Of a stretch of DNA of 64,000 bases, positions 6,464 to 61,483 are shown one piece after another. The translations under genes were made by a program, and so were the position numbers. The first letter of the stretch is position 1; every line of letters begins with the position of its first letter. The notes beneath the pieces are model-generated. The model had not been told where the DNA came from. It was given only the letters and a program-made list of their open reading frames with translations, and did not search any database. The DNA is from Ruditapes philippinarum. Its lineage: Eukaryota. The stretch is taken from assembly GCF_026571515.1 (NCBI RefSeq), contig NW_026858509.1, positions 372,001 through 436,000 of the forward strand. The letters are read 5' to 3'.

Positions 6464-6553
6464 GTCTTTCAAAATTTAATAGGATATAACTAGTTATTGC
6501 ACTAAGGTGACTAAGTCCATTTTAGATTATTTGGTATGGGTTAATAAACTCAC

Positions 6554-8517: not shown

Positions 8518-8639
8518 CTGGTTCTGGCTTCCATAACTTTAAATGTCACTTTTAATTTGACATTGTGATGGCTGTGCAACAGTAATATACTATAAAACCT
8601 GTTCGCTTAAGCTCCTTTCATTAGCCCAACAAAATGAAA

Positions 8640-21245: not shown

Positions 21246-21783
21246 AATGTATTTCCCTAGAATAAAATCTTAAATCAGAATTTTTTAGTTATTAAATTAC
21301 AATTACATGTACTTTTATCTTCCCTACTGATTTGTTTTAAGGTTCATTTAACAACACAGTGCCAAGGATAAAAACTTGCTTGCTAGATAACACTTATCCA
21401 TAATGCCCCCATCTCCATCTAAAGCTTTCGTAAACGGGCGTATTTTGTGACTATGGCACCCTTGTTCACAATATTACCAAATGACATGGTTTATATACAT
21501 GTATAAATGAATGTTCACAATATAACCAAATGACATGGTTTATATCAGCTTACAAAAGTTTATATTTGGCCATATATAATGTCAAAAATCTTTATAACTA
21601 AAAATTTGTTTGTATTAAAGAAAAATAGACAAAAATTGCTCATTGTTGTCAAGTTCATTGAAACCTTGCACCTTACTATGATAAAATATCTGTCACATTT
21701 ATTGCATTTGAATTAAGAATGCATAATTGATTTGGATTTTAAATGACTTATTTGATATTATATGAAAGTGTTTTCTATTTTAG

Positions 21784-28825: not shown

Positions 28826-29500
28826 TTATCCCCCGCCGAAAGGCGGTGGGGGATATAGAAATAGTCTCCGTACGTCCGACATTTTTGTCCAGAGCATATC
28901 TCAAAAAGTATTTGAGATATCAACTTGAAACTTCATAGGTGGATGGATCTCATTGAGGAGGAGTGCAGTGCACAAGAATGATAACTCTTCCCTGCATATG
29001 TTTTGAGTTATTGCCCTTTGTTATTTTTCAAAATTAATTTTTGTCCAGAGCATAACTCAAAAGGCCTTTGAGATATCAACATGAAACTTCATAGGTGCAT
29101 ATATCTCACTCAGGAAGTGTGCAGTGCACAAGAATGATAACTCTTCCCTGCATAATTTTTGAGTTTTTGCCCTTTGTTCTTTTTCATACTATTTAGTCCG
29201 GAGCTTATCTCAAAAAGTGTTTGAGATATCAACTTGAAACTTCAATATGGATAGATTTTACTGAGGAGGGGTGCAGCACACAAGAATGATAACCTACCCT
29301 GCATTATTTTTCAGTTATTGCCTTTTGTTATTTTCAGCCATCAGTATTCACATAGGTTTCAAATCTGTAATCACTTCAGCCATTAGTTTTCATTACCAAA
29401 AGACCTCTTAAAATTGAATTATTCTGCTCTACTACATATACATTCTTCTAATGAGCAAACACATTCGGCGGGGGATGGCCATGTTGACATGGCTCTTGTT
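28826..29500. mobile_element. HINE-like element, ~160-bp core, same family as 1-846 (inverted)
   Basis: Hairpin atccccccgccgaaaggcggtgggggat; monomers reverse-complementary to 1-760; end cggcgggggatggccatgttgacatggctcttgtt. Confidence 0.8.
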
Positions 29501-36735: not shown

Positions 36736-38893
36736 AGATATAATCCAAAACTATTCATACAGCTGATACTATGCCGATATACTTTTTTTATATATTTTCT
36801 TATGGTCCTCATCGAGGATTTTTGACATGATGAAACTGGAAAATTCTTTTCGAGATTAAGTTAACATTTGGTGTAGGTCTAGATCTATAACGCTAACTTG
36901 CTTTTTTTTCAGAATATTATTTTGATTTTGAAAAATGATCAAAAAAAGTGTTTAAACATTCTTAAAAGTACATTATGCCCAAGAAACAGATAAATTTGTC
37001 ACTCTTTAGAAAAGGCAAACATGAGTTTTAAAAATACTAAATAATAGCTTAAGAGCATGTTAGATGTGCATTATTGAAACAAAGTACATTAATTTGTCAA
37101 AAAGTAGCAAAATGTGAACAAATTAGTATTTTGACTTCTATACAAAATACTAAATCACTATATAACTGGACTAATGATAAAAATAGCGACAGAAGCAAAG
37201 GCCATTGAGTAATTTTATGGAAACTATAACATGACACCAGAATAAAATCCTTTTGAGAAATATGAGTAAAAAGAACATTTCTAGGGCGCAATGGACCGTT
37301 AACTTAAATCAGACTTAAAATACAACTTTCAAATTTTCAATTTAATGCTGAGTACATTTCTTTATTGTATTTTTAATATCTTTGCGTTTTGGGTGCCCCC
37401 CGATTAGCCATGTAAAGAATGAATTTTAATGTTTTTAGGCTTTTGGACCTCAGTGCAGTCCCTTATATCGTCTTATCTACAGACATAATCGATCAGTAAA
37501 ATAGAAACCAACATACGAAAAACATTTACTTTATCAACATTTATGTTTATCTAACATTATAAACCCCATGATTTTAGCAGTTATCCAACTTCCTCGTTGA
37601 AAAAAAAACAATTACAATACAAAATTCATAAATCAAAATCAGCCGAAGACCCACTACAGTGCTACATGGCCTGCTACAAAAATGAGCATATTATTTCAGT
37701 ATTATCGGAGAACAATAGTTCTCCTTTAATAACATTATCAACTTATTTATAATTGAGGTGTTCAGTTATCAATGCCAGTGTAAGAGTAACAAAATATGTT
37801 GAACTTAATGTCATCACAAGCGTGATGGTCAGGATATGTTAAACTCGTTCCCCATGCGGCCTTTGAAATGCTTTGCCATCTCCCTTACACTTGATTGTCT
37901 TTTACTGCGGGTTCACGGAAAAGGGCGATAAGATGGAGGTCATTCTATGTTATTTGTTTGTTATAAAAAGAAAAGAGAAATCAACGCTGTTGCCACTTAA
38001 TAGCTTATGTTAAGCTTAGATCTGTATAGAGGTTTTTCACATTACATGTCCCACTCCTTTCACCCTTATGTCCGCTTCTGGTTTTTTTGAGTGTGTCGGG
38101 GGCCGCGTCATGTGAACGTTGCCTTTGCCTTGTTGATCTTTATTCTTGTTTTTTTTTGCTACATTTGCTGAAATGAAAATCAAACGCAGAATCCCTAAGG
38201 AACGCCTAAAACGTCAAAATTGAAAATGTTACAGGTTAGATTGAGCCTGTACGTGGATGGTACTGGAACTTGCAAGTTACCGTTCATGCCCCTAGTACCT
38301 ACTTAAGCAGAACTCAACAACGGTACAATTTTGAATTCAGAAACATCCGCAGATGTGTTCATACGGCGGATATCACGGAACCTTCAATGTGAAACGTTTG
38401 TGCAATTCCATAAAAATAAGCTTTTTTTGTACATGTACCGAGTCTGCAATTTTCATGTAATTTTGTTGTGATTGATGTTTCCAGATATTTGAATGTTTTG
38501 AGATGCGCCATGTCATTCAATTATATATTGAAATAAATCTTGCTATATATAATGCAGAGAACTATTTTAAATCCTCTAAATTATCACGATCAGCAGGATT
38601 TTCTTGGTATTGACATTTTTAAAGGTGTTGAATTTTAATATTCATTGTAATAACGACTGCAGTGTTTCTTGCAAAAGAATAATGAAATTCTCGCTTTGGA
38701 GATGTCTTTAGAGCAATGAAAATAAAAACATACAGTGGAAAATAGCAGACTCGGTTTTGTGTTTATATGTTGAATTCTGCTTAAGCCGGTGCCAGGGGGC
38801 GTGGACGGTAACTCGCACTTTCCAGTAACGTCCATGAACAGGCTCGGTCAAACCGAGCCTACAACATTGTCATCGTTTAGGGATTCTGTTTTT

Positions 38894-40305
38894 CTCTATT
38901 TTACTGTGTTCATTAGTATTCTCTATTTTACTGTGTTCATTAGTATTCTCTATTTTACTGTTTTCATTAGTATTCTCTATTTTACTGTTTTCATTAGTAT
39001 TCTCTGTTTTACTGTGTTCATTAGTATTCTCTATTTTACTGTGTTCATTAGTATTCTCTGTTTTACTGTGTTCATAAGTATTCTCTGTTTTACTGTTTTC
39101 ATTAGTATTCTCTATTTTACTGTGTTCATTAGTATTCTCTATTTTACTGTGTTCATAAGTATTCTTTATTTTACTGTGTTCATTAGTATTCTCTATTTTA
39201 CTGTGTTCATTAGTATTCTCTATTTTATTGTTTTCATTAGTATTCTCTACTTTACTGTTTTCATTAGTATCCTCTGTTTTTACTGTGTTCATAAGTATTC
39301 TTTATTTTACTGTGTTCATAAGTATTCTCTATTTTACTGTGTTCATTAGTATTCTCTATTTTACTGTCTTCATAAGTATTCTCTATTTTACTGTGTTCAT
39401 AAGTATTCTCTATTTTATTGTTTTCATTAGTATTCTGTATTTTACTGTTTTCATTAGTATTCTCTATTTTTCTGTGTTCATTAGTATTCTCTATTTTACT
39501 GTGTTTATTAGTATTCTCTATTTTACTGTGTTCATAAGTATTCTTTAATTTTACTGTGTTCATTAGTATCCTCTGTTTTACTGTGTTCATAAGTATTCTC
39601 TATTTTACTGTGTTCATAAGTATTCTCTATTTTTACTGTGTTCATAAGTATTCTTTATGTTACTGTTTTCATTAGTATTCTCTATTTTACTGTGTTCATA
39701 AGTATTCTCTATTTTACTGTGTTCATTAGTATTCTCTATTTTACTGTGTTCATAAGTATTCTCTATTTTATTGTTTTCATTAGTATTCTCTATTTTACTG
39801 TTTTCATTAGTATCTCATAAGTATTCTCTATTTTACTGTGTTCATAAGTATCCTCTATTTTACTGTGTTCATAAGTATTCTCTATTTTACTGTATTCATA
39901 AGTATTCTCTATTTTACTGTTTTCATTAGTATTCTCTATTTTACTGTGTTCATTAGTATTCTCTATTTTACTGTGTTCATTAGTATTCTCTATTTTACTG
40001 TGTTCATAAGTATCCTCTGTTTTACTGTGTTCATAAGTATTCTCTATTTTACTGTGTTCATTAGTATCCTCTGTTTTGCTGTGTTCATAAGTATTCTTTA
40101 TTTTTACTGTGTTCATAAGTATTCTCTATTTTACTGTGTTCATTAGTATTCTCTATTTTACTGTGTTCATAAGTATTCTCTATTTTATTGTTTTCATTAG
40201 TATTCTCTACTTTACTGTTTTCATTAGCTTTCTCTATTTTACTGTGTTCATAAGTATTCTCTATTTTACAGTGTTCATTAGCTTTCTCTATGTTACTGTT
40301 TTCAT
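38894..40305. repeat. 27-bp minisatellite (~52 units), consensus ctctattttactgtgttcattagtatt
   Basis: Direct reading of tandem units; gives FTVFISILY and KIENTNEHS pseudo-ORFs on the two strands. Confidence 0.97.
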
Positions 40306-41885
40306 TAGAGATAATGTTAAATTCTACATCTCTCATGCCCTCTCTAGCACCGACTGAAGAAGTATTAAATCCTAACAACTTAAAAATATTGGAACCAATT
40401 GAAATTCATCTGTATGGATGTCAAACATTATTTACCATCATAGACATATGTTCAAACTTTCTTCCAGATGATAGCTAGATATATAGTATTTAGTTTTCAC
40501 GAAAGTAAACAAATTAAATTGTAAATTACGGCCTACTTAATTTAAATTGTTTAAAGATGGTGTACTTTTTTGTTGATGCTATTTTTTTTTTAAAGTAGGA
40601 TGCCAATGCTGCGGATTTCTTTGTAGCGCTTAAAAATATACTTTACTTAATCGGTTTTTAGGTTTGTTTGCTCGTTGGAAATCGCTCTATCAGAATGAGA
40701 AAACTTTAAAGATGTGTTTGATTAAAAAGATGAAAACACATTTTAAAAAATTCCTAGATGAGATGATTAATCTTAATGACAGATAGGACCTCTGGAAAAA
40801 TAGTTTTATTCTTTGATGACGAATGGCATATATAGATGAAAACATAAAATTTAAGAACAATAAGGGCTATCGGAAGGAAACACTTATCAAAGGTAGGTTG
40901 AATTATATTAATACTTTTAATCATATTGTTTATACGGTAGGAAATCTTTCGTTCAAGGAATGAAGTCATGATTTAGTTACTATGGCAACATGGTCCTCAA
41001 TCTGACTAAGGTTCAGAATCTTCTTGTGCTTAAGAGTGTTTTCAAATATTGTTGAAAACTATAGAAATGTATCATTGAATAAAGAATGTTGATTAAGTTA
41101 TAAGCCGTTTAGAATGACCATTTATCTGATAAATAAAAATATTTTGTTCAAAGAAACTTTATTACCTGCTATGTAAATATAATTATGTAATATCGGATCA
41201 TGTATCTCAGACTTACTAAGAACATCCAAGTATAATTCTTTTGTGGTTCAATTAAGTACCATCAACTTAATTATTCATTGTATTACAGATTTTCAATTAT
41301 ACTCGTAGATTTATTCATTTTAAAAGCTATCAATCTTACCTAGTGAATTATTCTTTGTACGATATTAATTAACTGAATTATACGGTGGAGGGCAATAAAT
41401 ACATTTCTGTCTAATTGGTTTTTTGGGTTGTTAATACATTTTGTGCAATAATATAAAATAATTAAAATCATGATATTCTTTTTTATGTTTGATAATTACT
41501 GAGAGAATCAAACAGATTTTTAAATTAATAAATGAGTTCAGCTAATCTCTACCTTTTTGTGTCCAATTTAAATCGACTACTTAATAGTTAACTGATCAAG
41601 TCAAAATGCTATCGTGCGTAAAATTATTGTGACACAAACATGAGTAATGGATTAATAGGCCATAAGTTACAGTCAATTGTATTTGCATTATTATCATGAC
41701 ATGACTAATTGTATTGATTAGAATGAGTTTTCATCAGGTTAGAAATATTCAAATGACTATCGTACATTCAACAATACAATGGAATACCCAATATTGTTAA
41801 CCAATAGAGTTAAACATCTTTCAAGAGTAATAAATCTTGTGCTTTTATTGTTTTATGTTTGTGTTTATTTCATATACAGATCACA

Positions 41886-42371
41886 ATGAATCAACAAAAG
41901 TTGGCACTGCTTCTAGGCACCATACTGTTGGTTGTCTTGATACCGGCTAGAGCTCAGTATAGTATCTCCTCATATACGAGTCACATGGGTGGTCATGGCG
42001 GAGGTCGGAGAGGAGGTTATGGTATGCCTTACACAGGTGGTCATGGCGGAGGTCATAGCGGTGGTTACGGTATGCCTTACACAGGTGGCCATGGCGGAGG
42101 TCGGAGAGGAGGTTATGGTATGCCCTACACTGGTGGCCATGGTGGAGGTCATAGTGGTGGTTATGGTATGCCCTACACAGGTGGTCATGGCGGAGGTAGT
42201 AGAGGAGGTTATGGTATGCCTTACACTGGTGGTCATGGCGGAGGTCATAGTGGTGGTTACGGTATGCCTTACACAGGTGGTCATGGCGGAGGTCATAGCG
42301 GTGGTTATGGTATGCCTTACACTGGTGGCCATGGTGGAGGTCATATATTTGGCAGGAGAGGAAGATATTAA
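41886..42371 (+). CDS. Secreted Gly/His/Tyr-rich repeat protein 2 (161 aa; 7x GGHGGGxxGGYGMPYT; ends RRGRY)
   Basis: catatacag|atcacaATG; signal peptide MNQQKLALLLGTILLVVLIPARA; 48-bp repeats vary mostly at synonymous positions; AATAAA at ~42598. Confidence 0.9.
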   Translation: MNQQKLALLLGTILLVVLIPARAQYSISSYTSHMGGHGGGRRGGYGMPYTGGHGGGHSGGYGMPYTGGHGGGRRGGYGMPYTGGHGGGHSGGYGMPYTGGHGGGSRGGYGMPYTGGHGGGHSGGYGMPYTGGHGGGHSGGYGMPYTGGHGGGHIFGRRGRY

Positions 42372-45454: not shown

Positions 45455-46635
45455 AAATAATATATCCCAAACTGTGATTTTATCGCTCAATAACATCACT
45501 GTTTGAAGATCGGATGCGAGGAATTGTATATAATGATGCGCATCCGAACGACAAACAGTGATGTTGACAAACAGTGATGTTATCAAGCGAACAAATCACC
45601 GATTTGGATATATTATTTCGACATCATCAAATAAATTTATGCTGCTGTACTTGATATTAAGCTAAATTGAGCCTGATTTGTTTCCGTACTTATTTTTGAC
45701 AGCGCGATACATTTTAGTGGTTATGTCACGTGTATAATGATTACGTCACATGTCTAAATACAGAACGTCAAACAGTGATTTTATTGCACACACTTTCAAT
45801 AGGGAAAATGCGGGTCGTGTTAGAATATACATCTAGGCCTCTATTAATAATTCATCATTGACGTAGAGACAAATAGTTAACCCTCATATGTCTCACTCAT
45901 TCGTTAGTAAAGTTATTTACGTAGTTATTTAGTATTAAATATATAGATCTACATAACAATTTACCACTTTGTTTCTTTCTATATATACTCTTTATTTCCG
46001 CTTTTCATTGATTACAATACATACAAGATGAAATACATACATATGATACATGATTTTGACAAAAGTGCACTTTAATATATTGTTAAACAGACATAATTAA
46101 GTTCAAGTTAATAGTTTCATCTATAAGCTTCTATATGGTTATATTAACAACATATAGATAATATCAAAGATCAATAAGTATTTAAGTGTTATTCTAACAC
46201 GACCCGTATGTTTCTCTATTGAACATAGAAGAACCGAAAGTGTGTGTTATTATCCTATAAAATCACTGTTTGACGTTCTATATTTAGACATATGACGTAA
46301 TCATTATACACGTGACGTTACCACTAAAATGTGACGGGCTGACAATAAGTACGGAAACAAATCAGGCGCAATTTAGCTTAATATCATGTACAGCAGCATT
46401 TATTTGTTGATGTCGTGTTAGAATCGAAATAATATATCCAAATCGGTGATTTTATTGCTGGATAAAATCACTGTTTGTCGTTCGGATGCGCATCATAATT
46501 ATATCACTCGGGCTACGCCCTCGTGATATAATTCCTCGCATCCGGACTCCAAACAGGGATTTTTTGGCAATAAAATCACAGTTTGAGATATATTATTTCG
46601 ATTCTAACACGACATCAACAAATAAATGCTGCTGT
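45455..46635. mobile_element. Pair of inverted ~380-450-bp elements separated by ~360 bp
   Basis: 45455-45827 is the reverse complement of 46190-46600; gggctacgccc hairpin at ~46510. Confidence 0.75.
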
Positions 46636-47730
46636 AGAATCACAAGTCTTACCGAAACGAAATATAAGCTATGCATATTCAAGACTCTATCGTCTTTCAA
46701 CAAAATTAAGAAAATTTGTTCGAGTCTCTTCAAGTGAAGTACAATTTAAGATTCATTGAAGATTAAAGTCACTTGTTTAAGAACCACATTTATTGCATGT
46801 TTTAACATCACTTTGCTTTGCTTCAACAACAACTTTAGCAGTACATAATGCATGTTTAATTGAATTTAGAGTCGGAATTTCTCCATAATATTGATTGGCC
46901 TATATCGGTATGTAAAACTTTTGAAGGCACAAAATCATCATTTCTGTTCATACTTTCTGACCAATGCTGTATACGATATTTGCGTATACAGCGTTAAAAA
47001 AATGTTCGCTTCCATTGTAACTTGTCAGGAAAGATTGTTGTTTGTAAGTATTATATTGCCTTAGAGCTCTACAAATGTCAGGTACATTGTATATATCCGC
47101 TAAATGTCCACTGAAACGTCTGTTTGCATAGAGGTTTAGCCTGAAATTAAAGATTTTTCTTGTCAATAAAGTTAAAGCATTGTGCAACGTTTCTACAGGA
47201 AATAAAGCTTTCTTATGACAATTTCTGCTATAGCAGGTAACCACCCCAGCATGCTTAGAGCCATTTTAGTTCGAGTTCGCCCTGAAAAATGATGAATGCA
47301 TTTGGCAACTAACCGGAGCAACTTTGCCATTTAAAGTATTTCGGTGTCTATCAAATCAATTCATAGTTCTGCTCCGTAAAAAGCAGTTGTAAAAGTAAAT
47401 TCAAGAGTAAGAAAAAACTCGTTTTCATTTCTGAGGCTTCAATAATGTGCATTTAAGGAACGATACATTAAGCTACTAGTCTCAGTGGATTAACAAAATC
47501 ACTGTAACATGTCCATACATTCAAATGTGTACCATATCATTTGTTACTTTTGATTGGGAGCCTAAATGTTTTAACTTCTATTAGATGTTGAAATAGAAAA
47601 AAATAAAGAGCGCACAAAACAACAAAATTGAAAATGTTACAGGCTCGGTTTGATTGAGTCTGTTCATTTATATACTGAATACATTTCAACAGTATAAACA
47701 CACTAAAATCATACAAAGAATAACAAAAAT

Positions 47731-47966
47731 TGAGCCGTGTCACGACAAAACCAACATAATGGGTTTGCGACCAGCATGGATCCAGACCAGCCTGCGCATC
47801 CGCGCAGTCTGATCAGGATCCATGCTGTTCACTATCAGTTTCTCTACTTGTAATAGGGTTTGTAAGCGAACAGCATGGATCCTGATCAACTGCGCGGATG
47901 CGCAGGCTGGTCTGGATCCATAAGGGTCGCAAACGCACTATGTTGGTTTTGTCGTGACACGGCTCA
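47731..47966. mobile_element. Palindromic MITE (well-preserved copy)
   Basis: tgagccgtgtcacgacaaaaccaacata ... tatgttggttttgtcgtgacacggctca; near-perfect ~100-bp arms. Confidence 0.9.
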
Positions 47967-48122
47967 AATGTGCAATTTAAGAATTTTTTAAGTTTGTGTA
48001 TTGTCACTAAGAATTCATTTCATGAATAGTTTAGTATATTTTATTTTGTCTTATTTATGTATTATGTGTACATATAACCTGTACATAGATGAGAATGCAA
48101 TTAAATAAAATAATAAGATAAT

Positions 48123-48712
48123 TGTTCTGCTTTGGTACTAGGAGAATTCTTGTACAACTAAAATACAAAAAGATTTATTTTCAAACTATTTTTTAACTAT
48201 TTCAATCCAGAGTCATGCAATCTATGGCTCTTCAGAGGAAAGGACTTTAGAACAAAAATTCCATAACAAAAATTTTAGCCCCAATAAATTTTACTGTAAC
48301 TCGTAACCCTTTTAAATTCCCTTTGGGTTTAATTTAAAACCAATAAATTTTTAAAATTTTGTGTAACAAAATTTTGGGGAAATCACCATAAAACAATGTT
48401 TAATGTTAATAAAAGTTTTAAAACTGAAACCTGAAAGTTCATGAAAAATTTCAGCTTTGGTTACTGATAGTGTTAAAATTTTTTTTGTAACTTTACTATC
48501 AAAAGGCCCTGAAATAGGTTTAAATTTTATCTTTAAAAACGATTACCGTAGTTTGGGTTTAAATTTAAATTTTTTCCTTTTTCTGTTTTGTTCTTTTTCC
48601 TTCGTTATAAACAAAATTCCCGACATTAAGGTACCTTAAAAAATAAAAGCAAAAAAAAAAATTTAAAAAATGAAATAAAAAAAATAAAATAAAAAATTTT
48701 TAATGCATAATA
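48123..48712 (-). repeat. 3' LTR
   Basis: 48123-48270 is nearly identical to 57978-58140; the remainder matches with homopolymer distortions; adjacent PPT. Confidence 0.9.
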
Positions 48713-49149
48713 CCACCCCCTCCTCTAAATTTTCTTTATTCCTATAAAAGAGTAAAGGGGTAATATATCCAAACTGTATTATTTTTAAACACATCAAGCA
48801 TTCTATGTATTTTAAGTAAAAAATGCATTAAGCATTATATCAGTATTTTTCTAAATAAAGTACAAAAACAGAAGCATATATTTTACAACAATACCAAATA
48901 AATGCATTTTTTTTTAACTGTCATTAAATACCAATTTATATTCTCATGCATATTTGCATATAAGTATCTCAACAGTTTTTGTTTGTTTTTTTTTTGTTTT
49001 TTTTTTTTTATAAAAAGAAAACATATACATATGTACAAAAATCAATATACATCATTGCAAAACATAAAAATATATGACATCAATTTTGATTTATTTCTTT
49101 TCATCTTGTCAAAGTTTGTTCTTAATTGAAAGATAATTCATGAAATAAA

Positions 49150-51550
49150 AATTAAATTATTCACAAAATATTTTCTAAAAAATTTAAAAATTTATTTGCC
49201 CTTAAAAGGTGGTGAAAATTAATACAATTTATTTTTAAAGAAGGGGAAAAAAAAACATGTATTCCAAGTTTGTAAAGGCATAAACAATTGTCAGGGTTGA
49301 AAAAAAAATAGGGACAAAAAGGGGGTAGACATTATAGGGCCCTTAAATTTTTTGGAAAAAAAAATTTTTCCCTGTAATTTGTTTCTATCTGTAAGGGTTT
49401 TGTTTGATAGCTTATTCTTTTTTTAAAATTCCCACCCAGTCAAATGTCCCAATTGGGGGTCCCCCATATTTCTGATGTTTTTTGGTAATGTTTTTGGGTG
49501 CCTTTTTTTGGGGCCAGAAAGGTAGGACAAAAAAGTTAGATTTTTAAGTGGAAAATTTGTACAGAATTTTTTCCCTTTAGGGGATTTAAACCCACTTTTT
49601 TTGGAAATTTTTTCTAAAAACCTTACATGTTTTTTACCCATTAAAAAAAACAAGAAGAATTATGTTTAAATGACAATTAAGGGGGATATAAATTCCGGGG
49701 CTAAATTTAAAAATTTTAAGTTTTCCCCAAAAGAAACATGTCTTTGTTGTAGCTTTTTTGAAAAAGTTAAAAACCCTAATAGGGAACTTTGGGAAGCTCA
49801 AAACCTGTTTGGTACAAGTGATTTGGGTAAGTGGGTACAAAAAATTTAAATTTACTTTTCTAAGCAAAACTTTGGTGTAAATTATAAAAAGCTTTCAGAA
49901 AAAAAGGTGAAACGGGTTTGCTGTGATATTTTAAAATAATGTCATTAGTTGAAATAATTTTAAACCCACCCAAAGTTTATTTCCTGACGTAAAAAATCTG
50001 TGGAGATTGAAAAATAAGTAAAATTTGTCTTTTGGGCTGTTTGTGCCTTTTTTTTGTAATTTAAGATGACTTTGCTGTCTTGCTTATTTTTTTAAATAGT
50101 ATGTTTTGGGAAAATTTAAAAAATTTTGGAAAAACTTTTAAATACCCCAGGGGGTTTTTCAAAAAATTTGAATTATATCAAATTTTTCAAAGAATATAAA
50201 AAAAAAAATTTGTTGAGCAATGAAAGTTTACAGGATGAAAATTTTTGCTGAATTTATTTTCATAGCAGTCGGGTCAATCTTGCAGGAAAAAAATGTAGGG
50301 GATTTTGTAAAACCCTGAAAAATCACATGGAAACATTAAATTATCAAAATTTGCAAAACCTTTATCCATTTTTTTTTCCCATTTTTTACAATCATTTTCC
50401 CAAAGGCCCCAAAACATTAAAAAACTAATTTTTGAATTTTTAAAGATGCAGAAAAAAAAAACCCAAATTAAAAAAAATATATTCAAAAATCAAAAAATTA
50501 AAATTTTTTCTTTGTTTAAAAAATTTTGCCCTTTTTTTTAAACAAGGAAAATTCAAAAGATTTCTTAATAGGCAGGCATTAAATTTTTTAAAAAATTCAA
50601 AATGCCCCTTTTATTAAATTGCTTTTTTTGAATTCCCAAAATTTCCCAAAATTTTGTGAAATATTGAAAAGATAAATTAAGTAATAGCAATATGTTTAGG
50701 TAAATCTAGTATTTGTGTTGCAATTTGAAGTTTTCATTTCGGGGAAAACGGGAAAATAAAGTTATTTAAAATTCATAAAGGGTTTAAAAAAATTGGTGAA
50801 AGGGAAAATTTTTTACAGAAACATATAGAGAAAGAATTTTTTTCTAGCAAAAAAATGTCCTAGCAAAAGGGGGTAGTAAGGTGCTGGGTCTGTATATATT
50901 AGTAAAATCCTATGAACTTTTTTTCAAAAATTTTCCCGGAATATAAATTCAGGGGTCTTGACATTGTTTCAAAGTTAATTAAGTGAGGAGATACCTTAAA
51001 AAATTAAAATTAAAGCTTTAAATAAAAATCCAAAAGTTCATTGAAAAGGGTTTTTCCCAAGCTGTCTAGATTTTGAAATTTTTGCTTAAAAATGAATCCC
51101 ATTAAATTTTTTGAAATGATTTCTTTAAATTAAAAAATTGTTTTTCAAACATTGAGTTTGAATATTTTTCAATACCCAAAATGATTTTTTTTCCAACCTT
51201 TAAAAATTTTTAAATTTCTCTTTCTTAGTATTTTCCATGTAAAAAATAAAATAAATCTTCATGTGTTTCAAACAAAATTAATCAGTTTGTTTTGATATTT
51301 TTTTTAATGAATTGATATGTCTAGTTTAGCATCTTTTACATTTTTTAACTTTTGCTGTGAAAAATATTGATCTTGGGACTTCCAATTTAAAAGGAAAAAA
51401 TTGGCACGTTTTATTTTCCCTACTTTTAATTGAAATTTTTTTTCAGGCAAAAATTTAAATTAAAAATTTACTTTAAAAATTCCCCCAAAACTGTTTTTTT
51501 TTTGTTTCTTTTAAAACCAAAAATATAAACAAATTAGCTTTTTTTGGTAA
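49150..51550 (-). pseudogene. Garbled env-like ORF (F-type fusion-protein-like; inference)
   Basis: Readable islands VSPHLINFETMSR (50994-50956), HRILLIYTDPAPYY (50914-50873), ATQILDLPKHIAIT (50721-50680), HPVN (~50237); located between integrase and the PPT. Confidence 0.5.
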
Positions 51551-52399
51551 TATAATTTAAAAATTAAATAAATTTCCATACTCTTCCTGCCCCTGAAAAG
51601 TTATCCACGGGTTAAAATTAAAAACCCCATTTTTTAAAAACCCGTTGAAAAGTCAGGGCCCTTCTTTCCAGACACCGATGGACTACAAAGTATCATTCCA
51701 AAGGTCGCATCGGGAAAATTTTGGAAGCAACTAGAATAAAAGGAAATGAAAAAAAATCAACAAAAAGGGAAAAAAAAGTGTTTCAGTTTTTTTTCTGCCT
51801 AGCCTTTGAACAAAAATATTTGAAGAAAAAAGAGAAAAAAAAAGAAGACCATTCTTTAATGAACACATTCAGTTCACCCCAAAATTTAAAAAATACAGTC
51901 ATATTTCCAGTTCAAAAGATAGTGCCCCTAATCACCCGTGCACAAAATTTTTGCCATTTTAAATAATAGGGAAACCTGAATAATTTCAAGAAAAAATTTT
52001 AAAATACCATGTGCCAAGTACAAAAAGGCCCAACAACCTGAAAAACTTGAAAATATATAGGGTTCTAAAAAAACATAAAACTAAATGGGGTTTAAACCCT
52101 AAGAAATTGAAACTTAGGGTTTTGAAATTTTATTTTTCTTTTTTTTTTCCTTTCCCAAATTTTTGAAATCGAACAAAAAAAAAGTTTCAGTTCTTTACTA
52201 ACATTTCATATTTTTCCCAAAAGTAGGCTTAAAACTTTTTGGTTGCTCCATTCAATAAGTATTTTTATCCCTTTTTCTTTTTCCCTTAGTTTAAAAATTC
52301 TTTTTTGTTTTGGGGTCCCCAAAAACCCCCAAATCATTATTGTTTGAAGTTTTGGTTTTAGGAGTTTTTTCCCCTTTGAAACATTTAAATTTTTTTAAA

Positions 52400-55370
52400 T
52401 TTTGGTAAACTTACCTGATTTTCTTGGGGTTTTGTGTTTTGGTCATCTTGATTATTTTCAATGTCATTTGTTTTTGTTACATTCCCCTTGATCCGGGTTT
52501 TTTTAAACCCTGATCTTTTATGGTCGGGTAGAACTGGTTTTGTTATAAAATTATTTTCCCTTCCATCAACTTAAAACCTAAAGTTGTCTGGATCATGTCC
52601 CTTTTTAAGTTTTTTTTGCATTTATTTGGGTGCTCTTAAATTTTGTTGTGTATTACTTTCTGAAATTCTGTATTTTATCTGGGGGAAAATTTTTGCCCTT
52701 TATGAAATAAGGACCTTTCTTTATACTCTATTTTTAGTTTGTAAGACCGGGTTTAATGTTTTTTAAATTTTCCCAAATAATATTTTGCTCAAAAAAAGTC
52801 TAAAATCAGAGGGTTGAGTTTTTTAAAATCTTCCCTTTAATTAAAATTCTTGCTGATTTTTTTTCAGTGTTTTTTTTTGCAATTTTATGTATTTTTTTCA
52901 GCCCTTTGAAAAAAGATTGTATATGTTTTTTAAATTTCCCCGGTTCCAAAATGGTTTCTCTATGTTTTAGTTTTTAACATCCATAGGGAGTTCTTTTCCC
53001 CTCAAAAATCTTTTTAAAATTTTTGGGGCAAAACCCTAAAGTTTCAATTTTGGTGAAAACCAAAGGGGGTTTTGAAATTTACTATTGGAAAAAAACATTT
53101 TTCCCAGTTCTTTTTGATTTTAAAAATATACAAAAGTAATGTTTGGAAAATTTGGGGTGGCATTTTGCCTTTAACAAAAAATCCTTTTTCCCTTTGGATT
53201 GAAAATTTAAGCTGTGCGGGGGTCTTTGTTGAAAAAATTGGGTTTAAAAATTTTTCCCACAAAAAACCGGGGATTAAAAAATTTTTAAAAAAGTTTTTTT
53301 GGAGAGGAATTTGTCCTCTAATTGGGTTTACAAAAAAAAAAGGGAACCCAGCTGGTTTTCCCCAAATAAACACAAAAAAAATCATTTTATTTTTTTTAAA
53401 ACCCCTTGCCTTTTTTTTTTTTGAAAAAACAAAAGGAATTTGGTTTTAGTTAATTTTTGGGCGGAAATCCTTTTTTTTTTCCCCGTATTTTGGGAAAAAC
53501 TATCCACAAAATTTTAATAAAATCCATCCATTGTTTTTCCCATATTTCATTTTTTAAGGTTTTAAAAATTGTCAAAAAATTTTTATTATTAAAAAATTGG
53601 GGGAAGCGATCTACCTTATGTGTATTGGTTTTCTTTTTTGCCTTTGTCTTTTGATTTCACAAAAACCCCGGGAAATTTCCCGGGGTTTTTTCAAATTTTT
53701 TGCCAAAAAATTTTTTTTTAAAATTTTTAATTTTTAAAGAAAGGAAGGGTTTTTTGACAAAAACAAATTTTTTTGAACATTTGTTTTAATGGGAAATTTT
53801 TTTTTCGGGGATGGAACCTTCACCAATTTTTAATTTTTTTGGAAGTGAAAAATTGAAAAATAACCCTTATTTTTTCCCTTTTGGGTTTAGGTTTTTTTTC
53901 TCTTTGACCCTTTTTGTTGAAAAGGGAATTTTTAAAAAATTTTAAATCCAAAAAAATTTTAAAAACTTTCTTTTTAACTTGTTTTTCTAAAATTAAAACC
54001 CTAATTTAAAAGGGGTTAATTTTTTTCCACCAAAATTTTCAAATTTGGGGTTTTTTTTTTAATAAAAAATTTTCCGGCAGTTTTTTTTTTTGGTTTTTAA
54101 TTTTTAAACTTTTTGGGGGTCATTAAAAAAATCAAATTTTTTATTTTTTTTTCCTTTTTTCAATTTTAAATCTTTTCCCCGGTAAAATCCAAAAAATTTT
54201 TTTGGGAAAAATTTGTTTTGGGGGAAAAAAAAATTTACGGGCCCGGGGAAATTTAAAATTAAAATTTTTTATAAAAATTTTTTTCTTATTCCTTTTCATT
54301 TTTGCTGGGTTTTAAGGGAAAAATTTGCGGATCCCAACCAAATGGGGTTCCTTTTAGAAAAACCCTTTAAAAACTGTTTTTTTCCCGCAAATAAAAAGTT
54401 GAAAAATGTATTTTAAAATTTGTTTGAAATTCCTAAAATTTGGGGAAAAAATTTAAAAAGATAAAACCTTTGGAAGGGGCATTTTAAATAAAAAATCCCC
54501 CTTTTTTCGGGTGTGAAAACTTTGTCCCCTTTTTAAATACCTTTTAAAAATTATTGCCCATTTTTCAAAAAGCAAAAAATTCAAAAAACCAAAAAATTTT
54601 TGGGGAAAAGTTTTGGTTTTTTAAAAAAAGTTTAAAAAATTAACTTTTATTCCTTGAGATTTTTGGTTTATTTTAAAAATTTAGAGCGGTTGCCCAAAGT
54701 TAAGCTTTAAATTTGGCCTTTAACCAAACAGCCTATGGGGGCCTTAAACATTTCTTTTTCCCTTAAAAAAATTATTTTGGGTTATTTTTTTTAAAAACCA
54801 CCCCAAAAAAGAATGAATTTCGGGGGGGTTTTAACGGGTAAAAATTTTTAAAAAAGTTTTGGGTTTCAATTTAAAAAAATAATTATTTTAAAAAAATAAA
54901 AAAATAATTGCTTGCCGTATTTCCTTTTTTTAAAATAATTTTGGAAAAATTTTATTTGTTTTTTAAAAAGGTTTTTCAAATTCTTTTTTTTAAAAATTTA
55001 AAAATTAAAAAATTCTTTGGTTTAAAATTTTCTTCAAAAATTTTAAAATTTTTTTTAAATCAAAATTAAAAAATTTTGTTTTTTTTAAAAATTACCCTGA
55101 TTTACATTTAACTTCCCTTGAGGTTAAAATAAAAAAAATTTATATAAATTGGCCCAATTTAAAATTGGCCTTTTGCAAGGAAAAATGCGGACTTAAACCG
55201 TCAAAATTTTTAAGGGGTCTGTGCCAAAACCCCTCTTTACTTTTTCTTTTTTTTTAAATAATGAAATTTTTTCTGTGAAAAAGAAAACTTTTAAACCTGG
55301 AGACATTTTTCAGCCCAGTTTGTCTTAATCGCAAAACCCACTTCTTTTAAAATTTACTGAGATTTTTTCT
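52400..55370 (-). pseudogene. Garbled RT C-terminus / RNase H / integrase region
   Basis: Continues from RT; GPYFI motif (GGTCCTTATTTCATA) at 52715-52701; HPQ-like remnant ~53160; frame destroyed by homopolymer indels. Confidence 0.6.
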
Positions 55371-56947
55371 TTAAATTTTGGGGCTAAAGAAAATGATAAC
55401 ATCATCTACATAACAGAGAACAAATTTCCATGAGATACCACTAAGAACTTTCATTAAAAGCGACTGAAAAGTAGCTGGAGCCCCTGACAATCCAAATGGC
55501 ATTTTTCTAAAAGAAAATATTCCTTCGGCACAAATGAATGAAGCTTTCTCCCTACTGTCTTGCTCTAAAGGTACTTGCCAAAATGCTTTACCAAGGTCAA
55601 GAGATGAAAAAAACTGTGAATTTGATTCCCCAATTGCATCAAAGATATCTGACAGGCGTGGTAAGGGATATGCCTGAGGTTTGCTTATCTTATTTAATTT
55701 CCTATAGTCAACTGCAAAACCTATACTCATCAGAACCTGCTTTTTTAACAAGTACAAACTGGTGAATGTCAATTTGAAGAACTTGCATCAATAATTTTGT
55801 TTTCTAACATTTTTTGTACCCAAACCCTTGTTGCTTCTCTTACCACAGGATTTTGTTTATAAGCTGGTAGTTTTACCGGCATTGCATCTCCTGTTTCAAT
55901 CTTGTGAGTTTGTAAATGTGTGCAACCTAAATCATGTAGTCCTTCTGAGAAAATGTCTCTATTTTTGTTTAAAAGATCTAATAACTGTTTTTTCTGGTAA
56001 TCATTTAAATCAGAATCTTTAAGATTGAAATCTAATGTACTACTAGGTTTTGAATTTGTTTTTATGTCTGAAATGCCTAAACTTTGTTCATTTTCAAATG
56101 AATGTTTGTCAACATCACCAATTGAAAATACTGATTTTTTTTCTACTTCTGAAACTGTTGCCAAAATTTTATTTGATTTCAAATAGACAATTTTATTAGT
56201 AGGATTAACTACTCTTAAAGCAGCTTTTCCATTTTCTACATGAACTAGGCATTTAGCACCTAAAATATGTTTATGAGTTAATGACACTAAAGGTTCTAAC
56301 AAAACATTTGAACCAGTTTTCACTCTTGATATTTTCACAGGAATATCAACTTCGGCCTGAGGGAGTATCTTAGTAGATCTTACAGTTCTAGCATAACCTG
56401 TATTTGTGCTAAGAGAACACACTTTCAAAAAGTCATGAATAATAAATTTTTTCGAGGCAATGTCCAAAGAAACCTTGTGTTTTTCCATAAAATCTATGCC
56501 CAAAATCACAGAATGATGTAAATCTTTGATAACATAAAATTTTGAAGCCAAGGTAACAGTCCCAAAACTTATATCTAAATTTACTTCCCCACTAACAGCA
56601 TGATGTGTTCCACCAACCCCTACTATTGTTTTAATTTTTGACTCGCTTATCTTGGGCTTCTTATCAAAGAAAGCTTTGTTAAAAAAGGACTCACTTAAAC
56701 ATGAAATTGATGCCCCTGTATCACATAAAGCACTAGTTTTTGTGTTATTGATACTAACAGAGACTGTGTTTCTAGTCATTATAGTTGAAAATTTTGGATC
56801 AATATATGACACATTAGCACTATCAGACTTTCTTTCATAAAATCTTGTTTGTTTTCCCTTAGTTTTAGCACTGTTTAAGTTGTTATCAATTTGTTTGTAA
56901 ACTATACTGTTATGCCTATCTACTGGCTGTGACCTGCAGACAGGCAC
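55371..56947 (-). CDS. pol: Gypsy pol: aspartic protease and reverse transcriptase (frameshifted)
   Basis: ALCDTGASIS, VILGIDFM, HKIETGDAMPV, VDYRKLN, YPLPRL, SSLDL..FWQVPL, MPFGLSGAPATFQ, YVDD. Confidence 0.93.
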
Positions 56948-56949
56948 GC

Positions 56950-57900
56950 ACCCCTATTGTGTATTATTTGACTGGTTCCAAGACTTTTTGTTAAAAGAAC
57001 TATTATTGTTATGCCCGAATTTTGAACTTTTACATTTATTGCCGAAATGGTTCAGTTTATTACATTATTTATAGCATGTTTTTGCCCATTGCTCTACAAG
57101 AATTAGCAGAATAGCACCTACCTCCACAACGATGACATGACGGAACAGCCTGTTGTTGTTTATTCTTATAGTGTCTGTCTCCATTGTTTCCTTCACGGTT
57201 CTTTTCTGTTGTCAACCTTGTTACAGCTGCTACCAACTGCTCAACTGTCTGTTCGAGTTTAGAAGTTTCTGTCACATTAATCTGGGCACGATCACCTATG
57301 TTTCCATGGATATCCCCCATCCTGGCAGCCAAATTTCGAACTTCTTGTAATGTTTTCGGAGCGTGCGCCCCCATTGCCTGGCCAACCATCCCTTCCATAC
57401 CTTTAAGTGCGATTTGAACTTGTACATTTTCAGGAATGTTGTTGATGTATGTAGCTTGTTCAAGCCTATTTAAAAACTGGTTCAAAGTCTCACCAGGTGA
57501 CTGTTTCATAGTGTAAATATCTAGACTTGCTTCTTTTTCAATTTTGAAATTTTGCGACCAACATATCTTTCAGTTCATTTATTCTTTCTGGTCTTATGTT
57601 TTGCGATTCATACCATAATCTTGCCAAGCCTTTCAAATGCCAGGCAAGTGATGCGACAGCCTGTTCATCTTTAAGAGCCGTTGCTCTAACGTATTCATCG
57701 AATCGTCTCAGATAACGGACAATATCCTGTGTCCCATCCCCGTAAAAATCCTCCATCCTAAATGCACCTGCCATTGGAAAAAAACCAGGTTCACGTGTTG
57801 TTGATGTTGGCAAACCAAGGTCTTGTGGCTGTTCTGGCTCAGTAGGCGGAGTTTGTACACTTCTCAAACTATAATTTGACGGTCTAGACGAAAGTGGCAT
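56950..57900 (-). CDS. gag: Gypsy gag (capsid plus zinc knuckle), frameshifted
   Basis: FYGDGTQD..YLRRFDEY..HLKGLARLWY; KQSPGETLNQF; CHRCG..C; after a frameshift, CYKCNKLNHFGNKC (CCHC). Confidence 0.88.
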
Positions 57901-57977
57901 TTGTTACTCGCTTGCTGATTTTACTGGTTACTCGCTTGCTAATTTGAGAGGTCGGAATCATCCACTACCCCACCAAG

Positions 57978-58567
57978 TGTTCTGCTTTGGTACTAGGGGA
58001 ATTCTTGTACAACTAAAATACAAAAAGATGTCCTTTTTCCTCAATTTATTTTCAAACTATTTTTTAACTATTTCAATCCAGAGTCATGCAATCTATGGCT
58101 CTTCAGAGGAAAGGACTTTAGAACAACAACTTCCATAACAATAATAGACCAATCAATTTTACTGTACATCATGTGACCCTTAATTCCCTTAGGTAATTTA
58201 ACCAATCAATTTTAATTTCGTGTAACGAAATTTGGAATCATCCAATGAAACAATGTTTACATGTTAATAAAGTATTAACTGAAACCCTGTAAGTTTTCAT
58301 GGACAAATCAGCTTATGGGGTTACTGATAGTGTTAAAATTTCTTTTGTAACATTTACTATCGGAAAAGGTCTGAAATAGGATTAATTATCTTGTTAAAGC
58401 GATTACCGTAGATTGGTTAACTTAGATCTTCCTATCTGTATTTGTTCTTATGCCTTCTGTTATAACATATTACCGACATTAAAGCGTACCTTAAGAAATA
58501 AAAGCAAAATAAAAATTAAATAAAAATGAATAATAAAAAATAAAATCAAAACTTTTAATGCATAATA
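57978..58567 (-). repeat. 5' LTR (590 bp)
   Basis: Starts TATTATGC, ends GCAGAACA; followed by CT-TGGTGGGGTAGTGG PBS. Confidence 0.9.
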
Positions 58568-59814
58568 TAATAATCAAATATGCATTAAACATATTCGTCA
58601 AATGATTGGTGTTCATTTCGTACAGGATCGACTGTTTGAATTACCCTGGTTTAATTTTTTTTTTAAACTAATATTAAGCAAATCTTTATTTTTCATTTTT
58701 TTTTTTTTTTTTTTGGTAATCTGTTACATTTTACAAGAAAATCATTTGCAATGTACCTTAGCCACCTTTGCTTCTTTTGCGTGTATTGGCAATAAGTGCA
58801 GTTACTGGGATTTAGTGTTTTGTATTAAAATTAAAATACCACTTTATTCATATTTTACTACCTTTATCACAAATTATTTAACGTTCAAAATTACGTTTTT
58901 TTCCCAACTGATATGCATCTCAGATATAACAACATTATGAATATATGTTTCTACAGAAGGGAAAATATACATGCCTACATTTCTAACGCTTAATGTGCTA
59001 CATGTAATAGTTTTGTGATTTTTATACTGCAAGTGCCTTTTAAGCAGCATGTATTTTTATGAAGTATGTATTAAATGAGCAACATTGTCATATAATGTTG
59101 CAATCGCAACATTTCAACAGTTTCCGTCAAACTTCGGATAAGGATGATTAATGGAAGTCGGCAAATTGTTCCGAATATATGGCGTTACGTATTATCACTG
59201 TTTGTCGTTGTTTGTTAATATTAAACTGCACAAAAAAGTTTAAAAAAGCATTTAGATAACAACTCTATAAAACCGTCATTAATGAATAGGCAGTGATGGG
59301 CAAAATGTACTTAGTCCTAAACAGAGTTCACTTAAATATCTAATGACTTGCAAATTCACTATGGTGAATTCTTAAAACAGTTTTGTAACTAAGGTTTCTC
59401 TTTTGTGAAGGGAATATTCATAAATCATTTCCCCCCAAAAAAGAAGCTTCCAAGACAAAAAGACGCTTTTAAATTGTTTTGTTTGATCAATCTGCAGACG
59501 ATGCATATAAACCTTGCAAGAAAGTTTATTTTTATAAATAGGTTTACATCAAACGGAAGCAAAAAGCATTCACGACCAAAAACCTAAAATAATAAAAAAA
59601 AAACAAAAAAAACACTGTGTCTTTAAGCGTATTTGCGTACGTGAGCGGTAGTGTAAACATATGGCCAAACATTTTGAAATTATAAGTCAGTAATTAAAAC
59701 AGTCATACAGGTGGTTACTGTCATTATTTACAAACGAGACTAATTGAAAGACATCAATTAGTTGCATGAAGAATAACTCATGTGCAAACGACTTTGATCA
59801 CTTTACGATTATCA

Positions 59815-59902
59815 ATCAATAAAAGGGAGAAATTTTGTTAAATATGTAGCAATCACTTTGCTTAAGCCACAAATTTACAACGATTTCTAAGACGAAACTA
59901 AG
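59815..59902 (+). promoter_or_regulatory. Putative core promoter and non-coding first exon of Gly-rich gene 3
   Basis: TATA-like aataaaaggg ~59818, Inr-like atcact ~59852, strong donor AAG|gtgagt at 59902. Confidence 0.5.
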
Positions 59903-60923
59903 GTGAGTTTTATTGTATACATATTTTACACGTTTTCTTTATTCTGTAAGGGTATTTGAGAATTTTCTTACATCAAAGCTTCGGTTTGTATGTGATGTCA
60001 CGGCTTGAATCAAATCCTTATTTCTTTTAACATTTAGCTTTAGTTCTTTATATTTTAAGAAGAATGGAATTGCTTTCAAATCATGTGAAACGCCTATAGA
60101 GGACCTGGGACGGAAGATAACTTCTGTCCCAGAAAGGACATAAACCGCTTAATGTTTGAATTCATTTTTTATAATCTAGCTTAAATATAGTTTTTAATTG
60201 TATATATTATGCAATGTATATTTTATATGTTTATATGTCTTATATACAGCAAAATTACACAAACCGCAACCGATTTTTCGTGTGATTTTTTCGTGTGAAA
60301 TTTCCCGCATATGACCTTTTTCTATCATATATATTTCACTTATATATATTTTATATATACATATGTATACATGTATTATACAGCATTAACGAAGTAAGTC
60401 TGTTAAGTATGTACGTGCAATTGCAATAAAAATATTCTAAGCATTTTATTGCGAGACAAATAATATAAAATCTTCATAATCAATCGATGACATGTGTACA
60501 AGGGCAATGTCATCTACACTTCCCAGATTGGGTTAAAAGAATAAAATAAAGCAAAGAATGAACAAGAAAATTTCTATCGTAAATTGACTTTGTAGTTCTA
60601 TCTGTTATGATTTGTGCAAGACTAACTACTTGTACTACGCGATGAAATTTATTGTAATATTCTGTGTATTGGCAATATCTCCCCTTTGGGTAGAAGCGAC
60701 ATTCTGACCCTGCAGAACAAAATATTTGGCACTTTAATAGATTTGACTATGATTTTTGCTATCAACAATCTTAAATGAGATTGTAATTTTAGGTAAGTAT
60801 TTTAGATAGTTCATATATAAATGAATTTAAAATACATACATATAATTTATAAATCTAAATGAAACGGAACGGAACAAACCATTTAATCTTTAATTTATAT
60901 TAATTTATCTCTTTCAGAACAAC

Positions 60924-61483
60924 ATGGGTGTCAAGACAGCATTTGTTCTTGTTGCCACAATCTTATTGGTTATTACCATACAATGCGATGCTCAATACCG
61001 TGGTAGGCGTGGACGTCATCATCATCATCACCACGGTGGTGGGCGTGGATATTACTCTGGTGGGTTTGGAGGGCCTTTCATTGGTGGATTTGGAAGAGGT
61101 CTTGGAGGCGGTATTGGCATAGGATTACTCGCAGGAGCTTTTGGTGGAGGCGGTTTCGGTTCCCCATTCGGATATGGATATCCAATCGGAGGATTTGGTT
61201 TCGGTGGTTTGGGAGGTTTCGGATATCCTGGATTCGGATTATACTGTAAGTATTAGTAATGATTTTTTCTTTAAAATGGAGAAGAAACATTTTTTCACAT
61301 TTTTCTAATTTAAAAATTATATGCATTTCGCTCTCAAACACTGTTTCGACTTAACCGATTGTGCAATACTGCATTGGTCCTAGTACTCAGAACCATTGTA
61401 TTTGCTTAATTAATACTGTCATGTTTTTTCTATTTCTCATATTTGTTTGCTCAATTTTTCAATATCTCAAATTTATTTCAGAA
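60924..61483 (+). CDS. Secreted Gly/Phe/Tyr-rich protein 3 (107 aa; CDS 60924-61245 + 61482-61483, stop codon split by an intron)
   Basis: ctttcag|aacaacATG; MGVKTAFVLVATILLVITIQCDA|QYRGRRGRHHHHHH..GLLAGAF..GFGLY; T|gtaagt...tttcag|AA gives TAA; AATAAA at ~61694. Confidence 0.87.

Follow-up and report, generated by a model that had tools for sequence, protein, structure and literature searches.

Organization of the element

The 64-kb window, meaning the whole stretch of DNA analysed, contains one Ty3/Gypsy element of 10.4 kb, which lies on the minus strand between positions 58567 and 48123 (Table 1). The element is bounded by paired long terminal repeats (LTRs) and by a 4-bp target-site duplication (TSD), ATTA, found at 58568-58571 beside the 5′ LTR and at 48119-48122 beyond the 3′ LTR. 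Following a primer-binding-site-like motif, gag precedes pol (in protease-RT-RNase H-integrase order), and an env homolog and a polypurine tract (PPT) come before the 3′ LTR. The gag product is 35-37% identical to the gag portion of P0073 (E 6e-37), and Pol is 98-100% identical over residues 1-500 to P0001, an intact Pol of 1440 aa. For the chromodomain-like tail of Pol, the match of P0001 to Chromo (E 0.023) is weaker than the cut-off, and the clade mates P0014, P0017 and P0024 carry PF00385. Because Pol reaches ~52118 by way of this tail, the extra region between pol and the PPT, which an earlier sequence-only reading had put at ~3.7 kb, exists but measures ~3.4 kb.

These sequence features identify the element as an LTR retrotransposon of the Ty3/Gypsy type with an env, and hence as an errantivirus in the operational sense (an env-bearing Ty3/Gypsy element). 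Named relatives suggest that its host is a mollusc, probably a bivalve. Classification as a true retrovirus was rejected, as the Pol is of the Ty3/Gypsy type. The sequence-only reading had also called the insertion recent on account of the intact TSD; the duplication is present, but in AT-rich DNA it is weak evidence of recency, and dating by LTR identity was rejected because the 3′ LTR is too corrupted. A tRNA search across the window returned none, and an Rfam search of 46000-60000 gave no match.

Table 1 Features of the element, listed in minus-strand order.
Feature	Position	Strand	Remarks
5′ LTR	57978..58567	-	590 nt, uncorrupted; starts TA (not TG), ends CA
Primer-binding-site-like motif (candidate)	57962..57975	-	starts TGG, two bases past the LTR
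gag	57069..57900	-	frameshift near 57545 breaks the frame in the assembly
pol: protease-RT-RNase H-integrase and chromodomain-like tail	52118..56947	-	from protein comparison
Homopolymer-corrupted tract	48250..55400	.	~7 kb
env (ORF3), F-type class I fusion polyprotein (predicted)	49258..51711	-	~790 codons, heavily frameshifted in the assembly
Furin-type cleavage position and fusion peptide	51340..51417	-	segment score 29.4, null max 12.6, 0/100
F1 core and Cys-rich region	50176..51114	-	holds the islands of the sequence-only reading; 34.2 and 17.9 vs null max 8.1 and 8.3
TM1, anchor of the F moiety	49865..49947	-	HR2+TM1 segment 10.2, reached by 1/100 shuffles
Internal signal peptide (inferred), short luminal linker, TM2	49640..49860	-	placed in the window by colinearity only
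C-terminal tail	49258..49601	-	~115 residues; 33.6 vs null max 8.7; 11.6 vs max 10.3
PPT	48713..48726	-	read directly in the sequence
3′ LTR	48123..48712	-	partly corrupted; 80.5% to the 5′ LTR

Detection of a hidden env

As had been claimed, ORF finders overlook env, a result of the corruption of the sequence; the longest stop-free frame between 52600 and 48600 is at most 86 aa. The window was compared with a frameshift-aware profile of 60 intact natural relatives, using a whole-profile score with per-target background and a null of 100 run-shuffled sequences; an earlier local frameshift-aware score with fixed background was dropped because it failed the tile control. The hidden F-type env that had been proposed between pol and the PPT is borne out by this profile, by the shuffle nulls and by the F-like fold predicted for relatives. 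The whole-profile score is 76.2, against a null mean of −41.0 (sd 6.8, max −19.2, 0/100; z = 17), and the best of the other window tiles (n = 28) scores −0.6. Conserved columns are matched at 49 of 102 positions, compared with 19-30 in 20 shuffles. When the seven segments of the profile are searched separately, five fall in the correct order, and for none of the five do more than 1 of 100 shuffles reach the score. The colinear env is placed at ~51710-49260 (~2.45 kb), and in the intact relatives a homologous family of ~790 residues comes after pol.

The islands that had been quoted as traces of this gene, VSPHLINFETMSR (50994-50956), HRILLIYTDPAPYY (50914-50873) and ATQILDLPKHIAIT (50721-50680), are present on the minus strand, as are PC near 50330, FPARL (50289-50275), CYE (50267-50259) and HPVN (50237-50226), and the islands spread over three frames. 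Chance readings of AT-rich, corrupted DNA with no env would agree with the failure of raw frames to match anything in Pfam or in two protein searches: Pfam returned no family for 6/6 long frames and 5/5 short stretches of the corrupted env and pol, a word search with one 150-residue raw frame kept 0 of 436 candidates, and phmmer with the same frame against 1.84 billion representatives gave 0 matches. Likewise, tblastn HSPs at E < 1e-3 come from only 4 of 80 relatives in the env region, versus 2 of 80 elsewhere in the window. Chance does not, however, produce a whole-profile z of 17 or five independent segments in order, and the env profile scores at null level on the equally corrupted pol region. 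The chance reading is already refuted, its probability being next to nil. In further searches, the env homologs went undetected when 312 locus ORFs were run through tblastn under low-complexity filtering, and the env profile compared with the PDB by sequence gave coiled-coil matches only (best E 0.0047). An intact env nearly identical to the window copy was not found; an intact Pol (P0001) exists elsewhere. A bacterial origin of L001, L004 and L005 was rejected, these being presumably host contigs inside symbiont MAGs.

Origin of the corruption

Within the corrupted tract, runs of at least four identical bases hold 24-58% of the bases, versus 3-22% elsewhere in 40001-64000. Down to ~55400 pol is clean, save for a single stop and a pair of frameshifts near 55770-55710, and below that it is corrupted; past residue 500, its identity to P0001 drops sharply to 30-80%, and 2-15 frameshifts occur per 100 codons. 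Between the LTRs, 33 of 35 substitutions copy the adjacent base. The homopolymer corruption is probably an assembly or consensus artefact. The env could also be genuine and the genomic copy a decayed, dead provirus with biological breaks, as suggested by the stop and several frameshifts in the otherwise clean gag/pol and by a 16-nt gap within the clean end of the 3′ LTR; a few of the lesions in the clean gag/pol part may be real. Decay as the source of the corruption is nevertheless improbable, since it would have to leave 500 residues of Pol 98-100% identical to an intact protein before the sudden drop, and to lengthen the adjacent-base run in nearly every LTR substitution. Both LTRs of one insertion start out identical, so runs inflated on one side only do not fit the usual course of mutation. 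The locus itself adds a further copy to a known group and clearly illustrates how a gene can be hidden by a probable assembly artefact.

Domain architecture of Env

The predicted model of the relative P0086 has an RSV/paramyxovirus F-like (paramyxo/pneumovirus F) fold, which supports the assignment of env as an F-type class I fusion protein with predicted fusion activity. The RxxR site, class I fusion fold and TM helix that the sequence-only reading had expected of such a protein occur in the relatives, and in 55 of 60 the RxxR site precedes a fusion peptide. At the N-terminus, the predicted model of one relative has a helix, and the corresponding window segment is weak (equalled by 8/100 shuffles in one run and 1/100 in another). 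Of the furin-type site in the window, the final basic residues alone are legible. This site and the fusion peptide lie at ~51415-51340; the place to which they had been assigned, 51170-51230, is heptad repeat 1. The TM-like patch that had been noticed corresponds to TM1 (~49947-49865). For QLDIDW, the position agrees with a conserved tail motif of the relatives, P-x-L-x-x-x-W (profile 725, ~49448), but the string as written occurs in no frame, the sequence-only reading having given it after homopolymer collapse.

Downstream of TM1, the segment from the internal signal peptide to TM2 is not significant alone in the window (12/100 and 10/100 shuffles). In the relatives, the linker carries a PSF motif and a positive-inside charge bias follows both TMs; from this bias only, we infer a cytosolic location for the tail. 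The tail of the relatives is predicted to fold into a beta domain similar to the matrix proteins of mononegaviruses, a match that is consistently the best but has a low Z. The Borna disease virus M, Newcastle disease virus M and Ebola VP40 N-terminal domain share 6-15% identity with the tail. These matrix proteins are soluble and each is the product of its own gene, whereas the domain in the element forms the C-terminal end of Env, after TM2, and for this reason it is called matrix-like and not a matrix protein. The sequence-only reading had noticed neither the second TM nor the internal signal-peptidase-like site nor the matrix-like tail.

Alternatively, this may be an ordinary F-type errantivirus env with a two-pass anchor and a beta domain, luminal or cytosolic, that is unrelated to viral matrix and similar through beta-sandwich convergence. 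We consider this rather unlikely: the Borna, paramyxo and filo matrix families align over 85-111 residues, compared with 50-65 for most unrelated rows, Foldseek on a different library separately yields nyami/bornavirus M, the tails of two different relatives give the same match, and the charge bias behind both TMs argues against it as well. When the tails of two relatives were searched in the atlas, no match reached 0.9, and a predicted complex of four tail copies (score 0.00, with the alignment not used and the fold uncertain) speaks neither for nor against either reading.

Comparison with known elements and proposed mechanism

In insect errantiviruses (gypsy, ZAM), env occupies the same position as in the element. 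Insect errantivirus Env and baculovirus F have a single TM and a short tail. Baculovirus F, at 570-660 aa, is shorter and ranks lower as a match to the env model (E 2e-18); a Baculo_F match is seen in 18 of 60 env relatives. Steamer-like elements are likewise bivalve Ty3/Gypsy LTR retrotransposons; the window element has an env, and to our knowledge Steamer is without one.

The novelty implied by the sequence-only reading does not hold, as F-type env Gypsy elements were already catalogued by Chary and Hayashi 2026 (PMC13524379), whose Supplementary file 1 contains 36 bivalve and 10 gastropod rows, all ENV_F. The window element and these mollusc elements have in common an LTR-gag-pol-env-LTR layout of ~10 kb, a Ty3/Gypsy Pol with a chromodomain-like tail, an env of the F type that has a furin site and a fusion peptide, and, probably, bivalve or gastropod hosts; the window copy would fail the intact-ORF filter of that study. 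The F-type "ancient errantiviruses" described there include a chromodomain-bearing Cnidaria/Mollusca/Annelida clade, and the authors argue against a baculovirus source of env, name no donor and call the transmission mechanism elusive outside Drosophila. Their analysis covered ectodomains only, and "matrix", "cytoplasmic", "tail", "alius" and "abalone" are absent from the text. Env-bearing Gypsy elements in bivalves are thus already published, and the matrix-like C-terminal domain of env is the extra feature.

The best explanation, which we judge rather probable, is that the locus holds the env, garbled in the assembly, of an env-bearing Ty3/Gypsy element of a mollusc, probably a bivalve, acting through a two-protein Env with a matrix-like tail. 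An N-terminal signal peptide would take Env into the ER, where it would trimerise; cleavage by furin into F2/F1 would then uncover the fusion peptide and make it available for class I fusion. Past TM1, a short basic loop and the internal signal peptide would return the chain to the lumen, and signal peptidase would free a second, small type-I membrane protein consisting of a ~34-residue Ser/Thr-rich luminal piece, TM2 and a ~120-residue cytosolic domain. Given its predicted mononegavirus-matrix-like fold, this domain would most likely be a membrane-tethered matrix that lines the inner leaflet and joins the envelope to the Gag capsid. The tail may help the particles to bud, and by analogy with the soma-to-germline passage of Drosophila errantiviruses, they may pass between cells. 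For non-insect errantiviruses, a matrix-like domain on Env would offer a budding mechanism that is concrete and open to test.

A broader proposal, offered tentatively as somewhat less than an even prospect, is that the env of mollusc errantiviruses represents an envelope module captured from negative-strand viruses, with a paramyxovirus-like F and a membrane-anchored matrix in one polyprotein split by signal peptidase. The module would also end aliusvirus glycoproteins, and its F part would be common to the mollusc herpesvirus fusogen. Glycoproteins of Aliusviridae/Myriaviridae (Jingchuvirales; Hubei coleoptera virus 3, Shayang fly virus 1 and Hubei myriapoda virus 8) are among the best matches to the whole env model (E 3e-27 to 6e-20), and the tail by itself is matched by aliusvirus proteins as well (TMq 0.50-0.54). 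They differ in belonging to negative-strand RNA viruses of arthropods, in length (1000-1240 aa) and in sharing 12-17% identity. We know of no annotated matrix protein in aliusviruses; if the proposal were true, the glycoprotein tail would supply it, soluble mononegavirus M proteins would be suggested as kin of a glycoprotein-tail domain, and a single entry module would connect a retrotransposon with an order of RNA viruses and with a DNA pathogen of aquaculture. A matrix-like domain in Env would also bear on the origin of env, on jingchuvirus matrix function and on the mollusc herpesvirus entry protein.

The top BFVD match to the whole env is the abalone herpesvirus protein A0A145VUZ2 (801 aa; E 3.5e-28, 816 columns, 17%), which has the same length as env, comes from the same host phylum and is effectively tied with a myriavirus protein; it is not among the best 50 tail matches. 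The relative P0093 (Mya arenaria) is named "Y068-like", Y068 being, we assume, OsHV-1 ORF68. Among malacoherpesviruses, the "envelope fusion protein" HaHV-1 tc2005_p119 is tabulated as the equivalent of OsHV-1 ORF68 (PMC6353905).

A single LTR element with a corrupted 3′ part

The minus strand of the window carries a single LTR element, the features of which are collected in the table. Both LTRs start with TA rather than the usual TG (at 58567 and 48712) and end with CA, the two termini forming an imperfect inverted repeat. The clean start of pol contains protease and RT matches, and a protein search with it yielded 25 relatives (among 4,859 candidates). The top relative, P0001, is an intact 1440-aa Pol that is 99% identical to the window and has a weak chromodomain match at its C-terminus (E 0.023). 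Because P0001 maps on to 52118, the extra 3′ region measures ~3.4 kb and not the ~3.7 kb of the sequence-only reading. The element falls within the structural definition of an errantivirus, and its putative working mode is errantivirus-like.

Features of the element in window positions (shuffle counts are shuffles reaching the observed segment score)
Feature	Position	Strand	Remark
Target-site flanks			ATTA at both element ends
5′ LTR	58567-57978	minus	
PBS-like motif			after 5′ LTR; starts TGG
gag	57900-57069	minus	
pol	56947-52118	minus	from mapping of P0001
env, furin/fusion peptide	51417-51141	minus	0/100 shuffles
env, core			0/100 shuffles
env, Cys-rich region			0/100 shuffles
env, HR2+TM1			1/100 shuffles
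env, tail	49601-49258	minus	0/100 shuffles
Purine tract	48726-48713	minus	
3′ LTR	48712-48123	minus	80.5% identical to 5′ LTR

Between ~55400 and ~48250, runs of ≥4 make up 24-58% of the bases, versus 3-22% elsewhere in 40001-64000. Identity to P0001 is 98-100% over 500 residues, with one stop and two frameshifts; past this point it falls to 30-80%, and every 100 codons hold 2-15 frameshifts. LTR-LTR substitutions copy a neighbouring base in 33/35 cases in the 3′ LTR versus 4/35 in the 5′ LTR. Based on the run excess, the abrupt drop in identity and the one-sided LTR substitutions, the corruption looks technical and is probably a consensus error. Direct searches (Pfam, protein searches) with the raw frames of the corrupted region gave no match, and env was therefore pursued through relatives.

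Env relatives and Pol phylogeny

A Pol scan of genome contigs gave 78 loci, apparently host DNA within bacterial MAGs; L001, L004, L005 and many others of L001-L078 look like animal LTR-retrotransposon contigs that GTDB has within bacterial MAGs. An ORF of ~800 codons lies 3′ of pol in three loci (L001, L004 and the circularised L005), and in L001 and L004 it scores above the cut-off for Baculo_F. These env-bearing loci and P0001 share one 28-row Pol clade (UFBoot 100 / SH-aLRT 99), in a tree of 46 of 96 rows that leaves out reference Gypsy clades and for which this clade was partly gathered by searching with the window's Pol. In L045, the env position directly 3′ of a Gypsy pol from another clade is taken by an ORF of 588 codons (7326-9089) that encodes a BTB/POZ domain (Pfam BTB_2, E 6.6e-13). 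In L007, where a Gypsy element is in tandem or circularised, a 285-codon ORF (5921-6775) without a Pfam match separates pol from the gag that follows.

A search with the aligned three ORFs yielded 80 env relatives out of 5,542 candidates, a minority with animal names (Ruditapes, Mactra, Pinctada, Mya, Mytilus, Haliotis) and two with the name of a bacterial MAG. The relative P0026 is annotated 'envelope fusion protein' of Sedimenticola. Sixty mostly full-length relatives were aligned, and 20 short or fused matches were left out. The nearest to the window's env is P0073 (Mactra antiquata). This host gene model, which fuses gag with env, and P0093 (Mya arenaria), named 'Y068-like', are pieces of this element family.

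A hidden F-type env in the window

Plain tblastn was marginal, with E < 1e-3 in the env region for 4/80 relatives and elsewhere in the window for 2/80. A first local frameshift-aware score was above shuffles but not above repeat-rich tiles, and was replaced by a frameshift-aware score of the whole env profile with the background set per target. The env region scores 76.2, whereas 100 run-shuffles of it reach at most -19.2 (mean -41.0, sd 6.8), bearing out the hidden F-type env that had been proposed past pol. Scores of -33 to -55 come from the controls, namely the opposite strand, reversed DNA, a reversed profile and pol, which is just as corrupted; 28 other window tiles score at most -0.6. 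Conserved columns are matched at 49/102, versus 19-30 in shuffles.

When searched independently, five of seven env segments are found in correct order; signal peptide/F2 (8/100 shuffles) and linker/TM2 (12/100) have no independent placement in the window. P0073 scores 141.9 against the window env (control maximum 26.2) and 33.6 for the tail (null maximum 8.7). With it, the pre-furin part is placed at 51713-51422 (1/100), and the colinear placement of TM1-TM2 falls short of significance (10/100). By these placements, env spans ~51710-49260 with its cleavage site near 51410, not at the possible basic site earlier placed at ~51170-51230. The peptide islands quoted earlier were found, spread over three frames, except that QLDIDW is absent as written; the three main islands coincide with conserved blocks of the env family.

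Fold and membrane topology

The relative P0086 was modelled with AlphaFold (pLDDT 74.8, pTM 0.52), and the model matches F of RSV, hPIV3 and NDV in the PDB. In BFVD, it is matched best by an abalone herpesvirus protein of 801 aa (E 3.5e-28), next by a glycoprotein of a myriavirus (3.0e-27) and by glycoproteins of alius/chu-like type; baculovirus F ranks lower (2.4e-18). Of the 60 aligned relatives, 55 have RxxR ahead of a fusion peptide, and hydropathy gives two TM segments in 50. Basic residues come after, not before, both TMs. Between TM1 and TM2 lie a short hydrophobic segment and a (-3,-1) signal-peptidase-like site, the latter present in 54/58 relatives versus a 32% background in a scoring range picked after inspection, and then a Ser/Thr-rich linker of ~34 residues. 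The simplest topology would comprise three membrane passes, cleavage and a cytosolic tail, although the conserved tail cysteine pair and undepleted sequons call for caution.

Relation to described elements

The survey of Chary and Hayashi contains 36 errantiviruses from bivalves and 10 from gastropods, all of them F-type, as well as an errantivirus clade of molluscs, annelids and cnidarians that bears a chromodomain; in the accessible text, only ectodomains are analysed (PMC13524379). Given these 36 bivalve rows, an env-bearing bivalve Gypsy element is not the novelty that had been implied. Viro3D puts class I proteins of aquatic herpesviruses together with those of Aliusviridae, and its accessible text makes no mention of malacoherpesviruses or a matrix domain (PMC12583693). 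Annotating the herpesvirus fusogen as such is no novelty either, since a HaHV-1 gene matching OsHV-1 ORF68 is labelled envelope fusion protein in the accessible part of PMC6353905. The accessible parts of PMC6651903, PMC13709462, 10.1101/2024.12.15.628590 and 10.1101/2024.11.25.625296 held nothing further. The point of interest is the family's F-plus-matrix-like polyprotein architecture, also present in this copy, in which the C-terminal domain appears to resemble mononegavirus matrix proteins. Neither for a matrix-like domain of glycoproteins from errantiviruses or jingchuviruses nor for an errantivirus-malacoherpesvirus link was a report found in the accessible portion of a literature covering few subscription journals, a silence that is no proof of novelty.

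Other features of the window

Two host ORFs without a Pfam match flank the element (41814-42371 and 60894-61256, both plus strand). They have signal-peptide-like starts and Gly/Tyr/His-rich repeats, and presumably resemble secreted shell or cuticle matrix proteins. A tandem duplication at 20385-22321 (~1077-nt spacing, listed segments 100% identical) is possibly an assembly duplication. Satellite-like dispersed arrays of ~156 nt and ~166 nt and a long 27-nt tandem array occupy 1-2500, 10241-10828, 28867-29336; 23585-24739; 38775-40400. Just past the 3′ LTR, a short MITE-like element with internal inverted repeats (47731-47960) has a 91% copy at 1028-1126.
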